The notes under the pieces: generated by a model | The model's database searches: none | What the model was told of the DNA's origin: nothing | Seen by the model: the letters and a program-made list of their open reading frames with translations, nothing else | Part shown: positions 8,123-43,466 of the stretch, in pieces | Position numbering within the stretch: the stretch's first letter is position 1 | Layout: each line of letters starts with the position of its first letter | Sequence record: PQ351811 | Strand: one strand, 5' to 3' | DNA length: 64,000 nucleotides | Source of the DNA: Shigella phage SSG23 | Translations under genes and position numbers: made by a program

Positions 8123-8147
8123 GGGGAGTGTAAATACTCCCTTTTTA
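8123..8147 (+). terminator. rho-independent terminator after gene 45
   Basis: GGGGAGT-gtaaat-ACTCCC followed by TTTTT. Confidence 0.55.
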
Positions 8148-9149: not shown

Positions 9150-9727
9150 TGTTAGGTCAATTTTTCGGTGAAGATGATACACAATTAAACGAGCATGAAA
9201 TTGCATGGCGCTCTCGTGATTGGGAAAAGGTGTCTGAACTAGCGGACACATTCACCGAGAAAACCGACAATGCATTATTTGCTCTGATGGATCATATCAC
9301 CTTAGATAAACAGCGCGTTAATGTGGGAAACAATTCTGCATATAACCAGAGATGGATTAACACCGCTCTTTCCCAGCACGCAGATTGTCTATATAGCGCG
9401 TATGTGATGAATTTAATCGGTCATGGCCTCCCAGATCAAATGCATTTTGATTATCTCTTACAGAGTATTTCTAAGGGGAAACGATACGGTAAATGGGCTA
9501 AACTAACAGAAGAATTGGACCAAAAATTGGTTTTAATGGCAGTGGCGAAAGCATATTGTGTAAATATGGATGACGCCCGGTTTTATCTCGATTTGGCTAA
9601 TGAAAAGGGATATATGGACAAGTTATTGAAGCACATTAAACCGTATGCGACCGATGAACTTTTGGCGGGTGTTACTAAGAATCAGACAGAAAGGAAACGA
9701 CTTAAAAAGATTATAGAAAGGTGGTAA
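9149..9727 (+). CDS. 62: clamp loader small subunit gp62
   Basis: ATG overlaps the gene 44 stop (TAATG); size and position match T4 gp62. Confidence 0.7.
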   Translation: MLGQFFGEDDTQLNEHEIAWRSRDWEKVSELADTFTEKTDNALFALMDHITLDKQRVNVGNNSAYNQRWINTALSQHADCLYSAYVMNLIGHGLPDQMHFDYLLQSISKGKRYGKWAKLTEELDQKLVLMAVAKAYCVNMDDARFYLDLANEKGYMDKLLKHIKPYATDELLAGVTKNQTERKRLKKIIERW

Positions 9728-14195: not shown

Positions 14196-14219
14196 AAGGG
14201 GCTACTTGCCCCTTTTTCA
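14196..14219 (+). terminator. rho-independent terminator after uvsX
   Basis: GGGGC-tactt-GCCCC followed by TTTTT. Confidence 0.6.
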
Positions 14220-14239
14220 TATCTAGAGAGGATTATATT

Positions 14240-17590: not shown

Positions 17591-18619
17591 ATGATTTACT
17601 ACGCAGATTATGAAATAGCGGAAAAAGCCATATACGGCGAACGAAATTTTAAACGGTTGCATACTAGCTCATTTACGCTGGTCTGTAGTTGTCCGATCTG
17701 CGGTGACTCAAAGAAAAATCATACTCAAGCGCGATTCCGTATCTATACCTATAAGGATAGTTTGCGTTGTGGTTGTTTCAACTGTAACTACAATCAGCCG
17801 TTAGGTGAATTTCTCAAACAGTATAAGCCGGACCTATTCAGGGAATGGCTTATGGAACGACGGAAGGAACAAGGCGACCACAAGAACACCACGTTCAAGC
17901 CACTGAAAAAGGTAGAAAAGCCGGAGATTAAGAAAGTGCAAACATTGCCTTTCTGCGAGAGATTAGATACTCTTCCGGCTAATCATCCTATAATAAAGTA
18001 TGTCAGTGATCGTTGCATTCCCAACGATAAATGGGATCTTCTGTATTTCACGAGAGAATGGCAAAAGGTAGCAAATCACATTAAAGCGGATACCTTCAAG
18101 AATCCGCAACCTGAACCGCGTTTAGTGATTCCTATCTTTAACCGTGAGAACAAGATAGAATCCATTCAGGGGCGAGCATTGAGAAAGGATTACGGAAAGA
18201 CCAAATATATGACGATTAAAACTCATGAGTTAGCGAGTAAGGTCTACGGTCTTGAACGTGCTGATCCGAGCAAACCAGTGTACTTCTTAGAGGGTCCGAT
18301 AGATTCCCTGTTCATTGATAATGGATGTGCTATCACTGGCGGTACTTTGGGATTGGATGAAATTCCTTTCCCTGATCAGCGAGTGTTTGTACTTGACGCC
18401 GAACCACGGTCAGCCGATACAATGCACCGACTGGAAAAGTTTATCAATGCAGGGGAAAAGATTGTATTGTGGGATCGTTGCCCGTGGCATTCTAAAGACG
18501 TTAACGCCATGATTCAGGACGAGGGCGCTACACGCGACCAGATCATGGAATATATCAAAGAGAACACCGTACAAGGTCTGATGGCTAAAATGCGGTTTAT
18601 GAAATATTGTAAATTTTAA
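17591..18619 (+). CDS. 61: DNA primase gp61
   Basis: N-terminal zinc ribbon (CSCPICGD, CGCFNC) plus Toprim-like region; 342 aa as in T4. Confidence 0.9.
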   Translation: MIYYADYEIAEKAIYGERNFKRLHTSSFTLVCSCPICGDSKKNHTQARFRIYTYKDSLRCGCFNCNYNQPLGEFLKQYKPDLFREWLMERRKEQGDHKNTTFKPLKKVEKPEIKKVQTLPFCERLDTLPANHPIIKYVSDRCIPNDKWDLLYFTREWQKVANHIKADTFKNPQPEPRLVIPIFNRENKIESIQGRALRKDYGKTKYMTIKTHELASKVYGLERADPSKPVYFLEGPIDSLFIDNGCAITGGTLGLDEIPFPDQRVFVLDAEPRSADTMHRLEKFINAGEKIVLWDRCPWHSKDVNAMIQDEGATRDQIMEYIKENTVQGLMAKMRFMKYCKF

Positions 18620-18627
18620 TTAATGAG

Positions 18628-19152
18628 GTGAATATGTCAGAATTTAATTCTTGCGCTGGTCTGGTTAGCGACGAAACTATGTCTAAAGCTGGTATTGCGT
18701 ATTCCGAGGCAATCACTAGCGGCAAAGATCCGCTGCAAGTAATGTTAGATATGCAAAAAGGCTTACAGGTCGCACTAGCTGATAAATTTGAGTGGGTGCC
18801 GCATCCTGATAAGCTGGAAACTTGCGGGGAGATCCTTGATTGGATGAAGTTGTGGGATGACGCAATCGACGACGAGACACGAGAACTTTATGTTGCCCTG
18901 GGTGGCATGTCAAATGGCAAAGATGCAAGCGCAATTACTAAAGTGTGGAAGAAGAACCACGGCGAAGCACGAGCGCGTAAATTTGCTGATCTGTCAGATG
19001 ACGATAAAATCGAAATTGCGATGGAATTGATCGATATCTGGCATTTCGTGCTGATTAAAATGCTGGGCTTAGGTTTAACCGCTAAGGATATCTTCAAGCT
19101 GTACTACCTGAAAAATGCTGAAAATTTCGCCCGTCAAGAACGCGGCTACTAA
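18628..19152 (+). CDS. 56: dCTP pyrophosphatase gp56 (MazG-like)
   Basis: DPLQVMLDMQ, RELY, LGGMSNG and C-terminal FKLYYLKNAENFARQ match T4 gp56. Confidence 0.85.
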   Translation: MNMSEFNSCAGLVSDETMSKAGIAYSEAITSGKDPLQVMLDMQKGLQVALADKFEWVPHPDKLETCGEILDWMKLWDDAIDDETRELYVALGGMSNGKDASAITKVWKKNHGEARARKFADLSDDDKIEIAMELIDIWHFVLIKMLGLGLTAKDIFKLYYLKNAENFARQERGY

Positions 19153-19159
19153 AAATTAG

Positions 19160-19188
19160 TTGACACTACTCTATAATGGTTTTATTAT
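19160..19188 (+). promoter_or_regulatory. candidate early promoter
   Basis: TTGACA, 17 nt, TATTAT; a TATAAT also lies only 6 nt after the -35, so assignment is ambiguous. Confidence 0.35.
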
Positions 19189-19217
19189 GCCTCCCGTCGA
19201 AAGATTGGAGGCTTTTT
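19189..19217 (+). terminator. terminator-like hairpin that also contains the next gene's Shine-Dalgarno
   Basis: GCCTCC-cgtcgaaagatt-GGAGGC followed by TTTTTATT, then ATG 19221. Confidence 0.5.
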
Positions 19218-19220
19218 ATT

Positions 19221-19724
19221 ATGCAATTCACACCAGAAGAACTTAACATCATTGATGAAGTGATGAACTCTAAAGAAAATATCGATATGTCGATCCTTAA
19301 TGGATTGATTGAAAAGACTGAACGGTTAGTGCATCACGAAGCCTTGTATCGCGGTGTGAGCAAAAGAGAAGGCCGTAAGCTGGATACCTTAATTGTGGGT
19401 GATTCTTTCGTTGTAGAGCGTCCTATGAGCTTTACGCCACTACAATCAACAGCAGAGGACTTTGCAACCGATGTTTATGCAACAGGAAAGATTATTGCAG
19501 TAAAACCTACCAAGCCTTGCATGAATTATTACGAACATGCTATAGACCGAGTGGTGTCTAAAGAGTATGACAATCCGACTACTCGACTGTCTTTGTATGC
19601 TATGTTGGCTGATGAGCGCGAGTGCATATACAAGACAGGGACGACCATGATCCTTGATGAGATCGAGGAAGTTTACGCGTGCAATGGCGACCTGATAGAG
19701 ATTTACAAATTTTCTTTAATTTAA
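19221..19724 (+). CDS. putative ADP-ribosyltransferase (ModA/ModB-like)
   Basis: R-S-E-type triad candidates: LYRGVS, SFTPLQST, ADEREC; size and position near dda/56 fit T4 modA/modB. Start at ATG 19221 after a hairpin-embedded GGAGG. Confidence 0.45.
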   Translation: MQFTPEELNIIDEVMNSKENIDMSILNGLIEKTERLVHHEALYRGVSKREGRKLDTLIVGDSFVVERPMSFTPLQSTAEDFATDVYATGKIIAVKPTKPCMNYYEHAIDRVVSKEYDNPTTRLSLYAMLADERECIYKTGTTMILDEIEEVYACNGDLIEIYKFSLI

Positions 19725-19727
19725 GTG

Positions 19728-19757
19728 TTGACAGCACAAACCAGATAGACAATAATA
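19728..19757 (+). promoter_or_regulatory. candidate early promoter
   Basis: TTGACA, about 17 nt, AATAAT; conserved leader ...ACCAACTAAGGAGAATCA before ATG. Confidence 0.4.
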
Positions 19758-25441: not shown

Positions 25442-25480
25442 TTGACATACAAGGGAGATTCTCTATAATGGGAGTCTCCC
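25442..25480 (+). promoter_or_regulatory. early promoter with enclosing hairpin (PeSL-like)
   Basis: TTGACA, 16 nt, TATAAT; GGGAGA...TCTCCC arms enclose the -10; T-run follows. Confidence 0.55.
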
Positions 25481-37753: not shown

Positions 37754-37760
37754 AAAAGAA

Positions 37761-37782
37761 GGGGAGGCCGAAAGGCTTCCCC
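37761..37782. terminator. bidirectional terminator between convergent early (+) and holin t (-) genes
   Basis: GGGGAGGCC-GAAA-GGCTTCCCC; T-rich on both flanks (TTT on +, TTCTTTTTT on -). Confidence 0.6.
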
Positions 37783-37788
37783 TTTAAG

Positions 37789-43419: not shown

Positions 43420-43455
43420 ACTGTATAAAAATAAAGCCGACCACATGGATCGGCT
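43420..43455 (-). terminator. rho-independent terminator after gene 35
   Basis: On the - strand: AGCCGA-TCCATGTGG-TCGGCT followed by TTTATTTTTATAC; nearly identical to the + strand terminator at 32852. Confidence 0.6.
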
Positions 43456-43466
43456 TGTTAAAAATG

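Follow-up and report, generated by a model that had tools for sequence, protein, structure and literature searches.

A hairpin overlapping the early promoter of a modB-like gene in a Krischvirus may bury the ribosome-binding site in transcripts arriving from upstream

RESULTS

Layout of the gene 56-modB interval

We analyzed a stretch of 64,000 nucleotides (nt) of Shigella phage SSG23 (PQ351811), hereafter called the window, and focused on the short interval that separates a gene 56 homologue from a gene coding for a ModB-like ADP-ribosyltransferase. This interval contains an early promoter, a hairpin and the ModB-like gene's ribosome-binding site, which overlap one another. ModB is a toxic host-takeover enzyme that is of current interest for attaching RNA chains to host proteins. 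The window belongs to a Krischvirus, an RB49-like phage of the T4 type; the test stretch is 100% identical to Shigella phage SFHK24 and matches 57 other Krischvirus records at 88 to 99% identity.

On the plus strand, the genes are arranged in the order gp43, uvsX, gp40, gp41, gp61, gp56, ModB-like, Srd, Y01A and Dda, with the gene 56 homologue as the final gene of a 40-41-61-56 run of replication genes. Transcripts of this run are predicted to arrive at the hairpin from upstream. The identities given to the two flanking genes in the initial annotation of this DNA were right. The upstream gene codes for a dCTPase homologue, with Pfam matches to dUTPase_2 and PRA-PH that are both weak, and its start is annotated at window position 18634 in the SFHK24 record. 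The downstream gene is annotated as modB in RB49, and its product shares 28 to 33% identity with T4-type ModB/ModA proteins in tblastn comparisons.

The stop codon of gene 56 (19150-19152) and the ATG of the modB-like gene at 19221 are separated by 68 nt. Reading from the stop codon, this gap is made up of AAAAATTAG, TTGACA, CTACTC-TATAAT-GGTTT, TATTAT, GCCTCC, C-GTC-GAAA-GAT-T, GGAGGC and TTTTTATT, followed by the ATG (Table 1). An open reading frame of 182 amino acids that would run from an ATG at 19176, within TATAAT, to 19724 was rejected as an artefact. The T run is 5, 6 or 7 nt long in relatives, which breaks this frame, and ATG 19176 is therefore in frame with ATG 19221 merely by accident.

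Table 1. Features of the gene 56-modB interval and its surroundings (window coordinates)
Feature	Position	Strand	Basis or remark
gp61 primase gene	17591-18619	+	
Gene 56 homologue (gp56 dCTPase/MazG-like)	18628..19152	+	Open reading frame list; annotated gp56 dCTPase in RB49 and relatives
A/T-rich stretch AAAAATTAG	19151..19159	+	UP-element-like position upstream of -35; collinear with the A-rich part of other cassettes
-35 hexamer TTGACA, early sigma-70 promoter	19160..19165	+	Promoter scan; minus_35_signal in GEC-3S; invariant in relatives examined
TATAAT, decoy -10-like hexamer in promoter spacer, probably unused	19172..19177	+	6 nt from -35
-10 hexamer TATTAT of early promoter	19183..19188	+	Promoter scan; GEC-3S annotation; cassette alignment
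Hairpin: 6-bp outer stem, C/U mismatch, 3-bp inner stem (GUC/GAU), GAAA tetraloop	19189..19212	+	
5' arm GCCTCC, promoter discriminator (about -6 to -1) and predicted anti-Shine-Dalgarno arm in read-through RNA	19189..19194	+	
12-nt spacer CGTCGAAAGATT	19195-19206	+	Forms 3-bp stem and GAAA tetraloop
Predicted transcription start, C19195 or G19196	19195..19196	+	7-8 nt past -10
Shine-Dalgarno GGAGG of the ModB-like gene	19207..19211	+	Within 3' arm GGAGGC (19207-19212)
U-tract TTTTTATT, predicted terminator tail and Shine-Dalgarno-AUG spacer	19213..19220	+	Directly 3' of stem
ModB-like ADP-ribosyltransferase gene, 167 amino acids	19221..19724	+	Open reading frame list; modB annotation in RB49
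-35 hexamers of other cassettes	3298, 10113, 25442, 25811, 32893, 33166, 33872, 34464, 34688, 52479, 52862, 58004, 60976, 61256, 61532, others	+	

A stable hairpin contains the Shine-Dalgarno sequence and is followed by a U-tract

The initial annotation described an inverted repeat, GCCTCC-N12-GGAGGC, followed by TTTTTATT and ATG 19221, and every one of these sequence statements was confirmed. It also took the 3' arm to be the Shine-Dalgarno (SD) sequence, and indeed GGAGG at 19207-19211 is the only SD of the ModB-like gene, 9 nt from the ATG. With two mismatches tolerated, the window still holds a single instance of the pattern GCCTCC-N12-GGAGGCTTTTT, and none was expected from 100 shuffles.

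The hairpin adopts the fold ((((((.(((....))).)))))) in dot-bracket notation, with 9 bp in total (7 G-C, 1 A-U and 1 G-U) and a U5AUU tail. Its folding free energy is -15 kcal/mol in a 51-nt context, compared with a mean of -6.5 kcal/mol for shuffled sequences (z = -3.96), and none of 200 shuffles was as stable. Folded alone, the hairpin has a free energy of -13.8 kcal/mol. A search of Rfam 15 over positions 18900-19500 returned no relevant family; the lone match, to rne5, scored 10.9 bits against a gathering score of 180 bits, is at chance level and lies elsewhere in that region.

The hairpin begins 37 nt past a stop codon and has the layout of an intrinsic terminator, namely, a GC-rich stem-loop with an adjoining U-tract, downstream of gene 56 and on the same strand. 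In RB49, TransTerm predicted a terminator with a 10-bp stem, called 'modB<--56', at positions 9430-9453 and gave it a confidence of 100 (Nolan et al. 2006, PMC1524935 supplement). These positions map exactly to window positions 19189-19212 and overlap the RB49 early-promoter model Pe:9496 by 8 nt. A terminator is also annotated at the hairpin in two GenBank records, Makalu_003 and TB34, and the former places the ribosome-binding site inside the terminator. The element, its promoter and the terminator reading are already present in the literature and databases, the RB49 site having been predicted in 2006. A simple terminator scan overlooked the hairpin owing to its 1x1 mismatch, given the loop and mismatch rules of that scan. 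With the criterion of a hairpin at or below -10 kcal/mol abutting a T-tract, a census found three distinct sites on the plus strand and four on the minus strand of the window, compared with 0.7 per strand in shuffled sequences.

The canonical stem and U-tract, together with the TransTerm confidence for the RB49 site, could mean that the element is merely the intrinsic terminator of the 61-56 unit. There would then be almost no read-through, and the overlap with the SD would be an accident of packing these signals into 68 nt. This explanation would also fit the frequent occurrence of G/C-rich stems among this phage's cassettes and the SD-AUG spacing, which the U-tract stretches to 9 to 11 nt. 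We nevertheless regard it as rather unlikely, in view of two observations described below: among 21 cassettes of the window only that of modB masks the SD, and in 10 other T4-like phages the modB leader hides both SD and AUG in a covarying hairpin that lacks a U-tract.

The -10 of the early promoter abuts the hairpin

The initial annotation noted that TTGACA (19160-65) and TATAAT (19172-77) are only 6 nt apart, which is correct, and it considered the promoter assignment to be uncertain. This uncertainty does not stand, as TATTAT, at the canonical spacing of 17 nt from TTGACA, had been missed. A promoter scan gave TTGACA-N17-TATTAT a score of 11 out of 12, and four independent lines of evidence support this assignment. 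Identical -35 and -10 hexamers are annotated in the GenBank record of GEC-3S. The RB49 model Pe:9496 (RB49 positions 9446-9496) corresponds to window positions 19146-19196 (Nolan et al. 2006, PMC1524935 supplement). The element can be aligned, free of gaps, with 10 further promoter cassettes of the window, whose -10 hexamers coincide with TATTAT. Phage JSE, finally, has lost TATAAT but retains TTGACA-N17-TATTAT. On the sequence evidence, the promoter is TTGACA-N17-TATTAT. The late-promoter motif TATAAATA recognized with gp55 does not occur in 19150-19220, and the promoter is of the early sigma-70 type.

The Pe:9496 model ends 8 nt past TATTAT, and the promoter of srd shows an equal offset. In the same 10-cassette alignment, GCCTCC lies over the C-rich discriminators of the other cassettes (ACCCCC or ACTCCC), and positions 19195-19197 (C-G-T) lie over their conserved C-A-T start motif. 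The start listed in Table 1 is predicted from the spacing to the -10 hexamer, this alignment and the position at which the RB49 model stops. The -10 hexamer, which ends at 19188, abuts the hairpin's 5' arm (19189-19194), and the predicted start follows at 19195/6. Transcripts from this promoter should therefore begin past the 5' arm and never form the hairpin.

A different start would change this picture. If TATAAT at 19172-77 served as the -10, transcription would begin at approximately 19184, and the mRNA of the gene itself would carry the whole hairpin, either as an attenuator in the leader or as a throttle on translation that limits a toxic ADP-ribosyltransferase. TATAAT is a perfect -10 hexamer, it is retained in the IMG/VR relative L006 even though three of the six bases just upstream differ, and over-expression of ModB has been reported as lethal (PMC3014915). 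However, the -35 is only 6 nt away from it, and the sequence found 17 nt upstream, CTAAAA, would make a poor -35. In phage JSE, TATAAT is replaced by ATCAAT while TTGACA-N17-TATTAT, the hairpin and the T-tract are unchanged, and we rejected TATAAT as a functional -10 on that account. TATTAT is the -10 in the GEC-3S record, in the RB49 model and in the cassette alignment. Moreover, such a promoter would be self-defeating, since each of its transcripts would meet the terminator after about 30 nt. This alternative thus appears most improbable.

The predicted accessibility of the SD depends on where the transcript starts

We computed the accessibility of the SD in modeled RNAs with 3' ends up to position 19300. 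In read-through RNA coming from gene 56, the probability that the SD is unpaired was 0.000 to 0.002, and opening it cost approximately 11 kcal/mol. In RNA starting at 19195 to 19197, that probability was 0.39 to 0.41 and the opening cost 2 to 3.5 kcal/mol. By computed folding, the SD is paired in upstream-initiated transcripts, as in T4-type masking, and the Krischvirus AUG itself is unpaired. Of 21 promoter cassettes of the window that were compared, the modB cassette alone has its SD strongly masked, with an opening cost of 11.2 kcal/mol versus 0.3 to 4.8 kcal/mol for the others.

According to the initial annotation, the hairpin might both terminate read-through from gene 56 and gate translation of the Mod-like gene. 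Both functions are plausible, the former in view of the TransTerm prediction and the database annotations and the latter in view of the SD being ~100% paired in read-through RNA. However, the hairpin would not be a switch on the mRNA of the gene itself; rather, it would discriminate between transcripts by their origin.

We propose that the element is a compact cassette of the promoter-early stem-loop (PeSL) type, in which a strong sigma-70 early promoter overlaps a hairpin that acts only on transcripts derived from upstream, and we give this reading a probability of roughly two in three. In RNA originating from the 40-41-61-56 run, GCCUCC would fold onto GGAGGC and bury the SD. With its U5-7 tract, the hairpin would be a canonical intrinsic terminator, and most upstream transcripts would end at about 19213-19220. 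In the residual read-through RNA, the SD would stay buried, and ribosomes would be unable to load on the ModB-like gene. The gene's own early promoter would fire inside the hairpin, yielding a 25- to 26-nt leader with a free SD. Being unable to form the hairpin, this RNA would be neither terminated nor masked. Synthesis of the ModB-like protein would depend on the early promoter of its gene and be shielded from the transcription unit of the replication genes, and the protein would be made only while that promoter is active. Over-expressed ModB is reportedly lethal to the cell (PMC3014915), and synthesis from the early promoter only fits a host-takeover enzyme with this property.

The stem is invariant within Krischvirus, and the element lies between mosaic segments

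The element was found in 58 of 58 Krischvirus records. None of the 18 stem positions carries a substitution among the variants examined. The variable sites are limited to the promoter spacer at 19166-19174, one position of the -10 (TATTGT in the L005 contig), the bulged U (a C in L006) and the length of the T run, from 5 to 7.

Positions 19100-19276 form an island of ~170 nt of near-identical sequence between mosaic segments, and the invariance of the stem therefore carries limited weight as independent evidence. On its left side, gp56 of the RB49 group shows 72 to 73% identity to the window, which rises to ~100% past about 19098-19107; on its right side, modB of L006 is near-identical to the window through 19276 and 71% identical from 19277 onward. 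Judging from these alignments, an island between exchanged modules fits the linker recombination or modular shuffling proposed for PeSL cassettes.

The surroundings of the element differ among relatives. In TB34, a gene coding for an HNH homing endonuclease is inserted between the primase gene and gene 56 (L002, 921-1484). In JSE (L015, 224-1144) and G37-3 (L016, 215-1144), an HNH gene on the opposite strand lies between gene 56 and the -35 hexamer; the A/T-rich stretch is replaced in both phages, and homology to the window resumes at about 19157-19160. In a T4-like contig (L008, 11300-11470; IMG/VR 2706795719), the gp56 stop codon overlaps the next ATG (TAATG) and there is no cassette, so that the presence of a promoter-hairpin behind gene 56 is not universal.

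The mosaic junctions on both sides (the change in gp56 at ~19100 and that in modB of L006 from 19277), the HNH genes inserted nearby in TB34, JSE and G37-3, and the PeSL mini-circle data (PMC2839356) all lend some weight to a role at the DNA level. The element would then be a recombination linker for modular shuffling, and its inverted repeat a recombination or protein-binding site, not an RNA structure. Such a role would be compatible with a role of the RNA. As the sole explanation it seems quite improbable to us: in other genera, many of the base pairs are G-U, which correspond to A-C mismatches on the other strand and would not suit a cruciform or an operator, and the sequence covaries instead of being conserved, with loops of variable length, unlike a protein operator.

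We looked for orthologues of intermediate divergence by searching viral contigs at the protein level, by using a degenerate DNA pattern from the gp56 C terminus, by searching metagenome contigs and by aligning ModB proteins. These searches yielded almost none: most proteins were ~99% identical, one was 75% identical (L006), and the distant T4-type ModB loci were at ~32 to 34%. Covariation was therefore sought in other genera.

modB leaders of other T4-like genera form covarying hairpins around the start site

We examined 11 modB leaders from outside Krischvirus, those of T4, RB69, S16, JS98, Q7622, pzk-kv8, Potts1, PM2, Vettismorki, phiC120 and an IMG/VR contig. Ten of them form a hairpin of 13 to 19 bp, with free energies of -17 to -26 kcal/mol, that pairs the -10 hexamer and discriminator with the SD and AUG. 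These masked leaders come from Tequatrovirus, Mosigvirus, Gelderlandvirus, Dhakavirus, Kanagawavirus, Marfavirus, Mosugukvirus, Winklervirus and the IMG/VR contig. The T4 hairpin has 18 to 19 bp and a free energy of -20.7 kcal/mol (z = -7.0); its 5' arm comprises the -10 hexamer TATGAT, the discriminator and some bases upstream, and its 3' arm comprises the SD, the noncoding SD-AUG spacer GCUAUC, the AUG and the initial codons of modB. The RB69 leader has a like architecture built from a different sequence, at -22.3 kcal/mol. In all 10 hairpin-bearing leaders, the predicted start is located either in the uppermost part of the 5' arm or within the loop.

The -10 hexamers of these leaders vary (TATGAT, TATAAT, TAGTAT, TACTAT or TATAGT), and the SD-AUG spacers vary in a complementary manner. 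We tested covariation on a structure-anchored alignment, using as controls the same alignment with partners slid by one to three columns. Paired cells amounted to 83.8%, compared with 37 to 59% after sliding, and 10 of 16 pairs were changed on both sides, compared with 2 to 5. The covariation score was 0.514, compared with at most 0.14 in the slid controls, and none of 500 shuffles reached the observed value. The many G-U pairs argue for a constraint on the sense-strand RNA and not for a DNA palindrome.

Opening of the start region costs 11 to 21 kcal/mol in read-through RNA and 1 to 5 kcal/mol in RNA from the own promoter, the median for neighboring genes being 5.4 kcal/mol. When 85 genes in the first 50 kb of T4 were ranked by sequestration of their start sites, modB came second, at 16.1 kcal/mol, the median being 4.2 kcal/mol. 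Gene 49 came first (16.9 kcal/mol) and soc lower (8.7 kcal/mol); both are known cases of masking.

A U-tract follows none of the 10 T4-type modB hairpins, whose 3' arm continues into the coding sequence. Because these hairpins covary in its absence, masking appears to be the conserved role, which argues against the Krischvirus element being a terminator and nothing else. From this comparison, the U5-7 tract, and with it termination, looks like an addition specific to Krischvirus. We tentatively propose that the hairpin of the modB leader represents a device conserved among Straboviridae, in which the -10 and discriminator of the gene's own promoter serve as anti-SD and anti-AUG strand, such that translation would occur from early-promoter transcripts only, and to which Krischvirus would have fused a terminator. 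We place the odds of this broader proposal just short of even. On sequence comparison, a covarying, promoter-embedded mask of the start site ahead of modB across T4-like genera would be an additional finding. Such a structure appears to cover the modB leader in at least ten genera. We did not find it in the accessible literature, and its priority is uncertain.

Two other early genes of T4 (L040), starting at 8147 and 15218 on the minus strand, have hairpins that bury the SD, with opening costs of 13.9 and 11.1 kcal/mol, respectively. The 5' arms of these hairpins correspond to the spacer or the -10 region of early promoters of the GTTTAC type. These modeled folds suggest that a mask embedded in an early promoter is not unique to modB. 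In phiC120 (L034, positions 163 and 355), a small open reading frame directly upstream of the mod gene is strongly masked, at 14.6 kcal/mol.

Comparison with PeSL cassettes and with masked genes of T4

Approximately 51 PeSL cassettes have been described in RB49 and phi1 (Arbiol et al. 2010, PMC2839356). Each consists of an AT-rich stretch, a sigma-70 promoter that matches the consensus, a stable stem-loop for which five positions are described, an SD and an ATG, and the cassettes have been proposed to mediate modular shuffling, with mini-circle data bearing on that proposal (PMC2839356). A wild-type PeSL promoter is very strong, at ~13,000 Miller units, and the stem-loop of a PeSL other than that of modB lowered lacZ expression about as strongly as rrnB T1 (PMC2839356). 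The PeSLs assayed in reporters were 193/192, 206/205 and 211/210, not the modB site (PMC2839356).

The modB element occurs in the same genus and shares these traits: it is intergenic, from stop codon to ATG, with an A-rich region upstream, consensus -35 and -10 hexamers, a stem-loop at a PeSL position and then an SD and an ATG, and it is collinear with the other cassettes. It differs in the nature of its stem. Usual PeSL stems have a G-run as 5' arm and a C-run as 3' arm, lie between -35 and -10 or over the -10, and leave the SD free, whereas the modB element uses its C-rich discriminator as 5' arm and its SD as 3' arm, followed by a true U-tract. In addition, it precedes a conserved gene of known function, whereas the usual PeSL precedes an orphan ORF. 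SD masking is not discussed by Arbiol et al. (2010, PMC2839356).

In T4, the genes e, soc, 49 and I-TevI have hairpins that mask the start site together with an internal promoter (Uzan & Miller 2010, PMC3014915). As in those genes, the SD of the modB element is paired in long upstream-initiated transcripts, and the T4-type modB leaders also pair the AUG. In the T4 genes, RNA made from the internal promoter lacks the 5' arm and can be translated, and RNA made from the modB promoter is predicted to behave likewise. The differences concern timing and structure. The internal promoters of e, soc, 49 and I-TevI are late ones, dependent on gp55, for late-only translation, whereas the modB element has a sigma-70 promoter of the early type, with its -10 and discriminator serving as the 5' arm; the Krischvirus hairpin, unlike theirs, also bears a terminator U-tract. 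modB is not among the masked genes given in that review (PMC3014915).

With intrinsic terminators, the element shares a GC-rich stem, a GNRA tetraloop, an adjoining U-tract and, for its RB49 orthologue, the top TransTerm confidence. In contrast with them, it overlaps a promoter, its 3' arm is the SD of the next gene, and its stem contains a 1x1 mismatch.

Strength and implications of the proposed mechanism

Several observations weigh against an origin-dependent mask. The start site is a prediction, and we found no 5' or 3' end maps or reporter data for the element, nor for any Krischvirus; a literature search for start-site maps of Krischvirus or T4 yielded nothing usable. There is no covariation within Krischvirus, because the stem is invariant, and this invariance partly reflects the near-identical island, whose causes may include recombination. 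The Krischvirus hairpin is shorter than that of T4 and covers only the SD, not the AUG. When the modeled 3' end is moved to 19350, pairing between the short transcript's SD and 19337-19344 becomes possible, and the computed advantage of that transcript shrinks. We rejected this pairing as a candidate structure, as it is no better than in shuffled sequences (z = -1.3), and it would compete with ribosomes loading during transcription. As for the other genera, the mod gene leader of the Mosigvirus phiC120 has no hairpin and is unmasked, at 3.6 kcal/mol. The alignment used for the covariation test was fitted to each sequence's own fold, and the percentage of paired cells is therefore inflated; the double substitutions adjoining the -10 and the SD are real despite this fitting. 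Comments on SD masking or on a start within the hairpin were not found in the accessible literature, which does not include some older papers on T4 and RB49, so that priority is uncertain.

For the window, the analysis tidies the annotation: it fixes the promoter and explains both the terminator marked in GenBank and the location of an SD within it. If the hairpin is indeed a conserved device, ModB would be silent after early-promoter shut-off despite continuing upstream transcription. The device would then mirror, with early instead of late timing, the gating of e, soc, 49 and I-TevI, and might extend to the T4 genes at 8147 and 15218. Confirmation would add an 'early-promoter-only' class to the T4 translational controls that depend on transcript origin, and mutations in the SD-AUG spacer would provide a simple handle on the timing of ModB synthesis.

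Other cassettes and terminators of the window

Approximately 18 cassettes of the PeSL type are present on the plus strand of the window (Table 1). Most have a stem with a G-run and a C-run that is situated between -35 and -10 or looped over the -10, ending at -1. Those at 19728, 32893 and 51411 are stemless, and in nearly all cassettes the 5' arm of the stem is upstream of the predicted start.

Further terminators consisting of a hairpin and a T-tract were found at 2193-2216 and 25453-25480 on the plus strand and at 37758-37785 and 43432-43459 on the minus strand. Another one, at 14200-14230 (plus strand), after uvsX, was overlooked by the census, which is length-quantised. The terminator at 25453 encloses the -10 of a promoter cassette.

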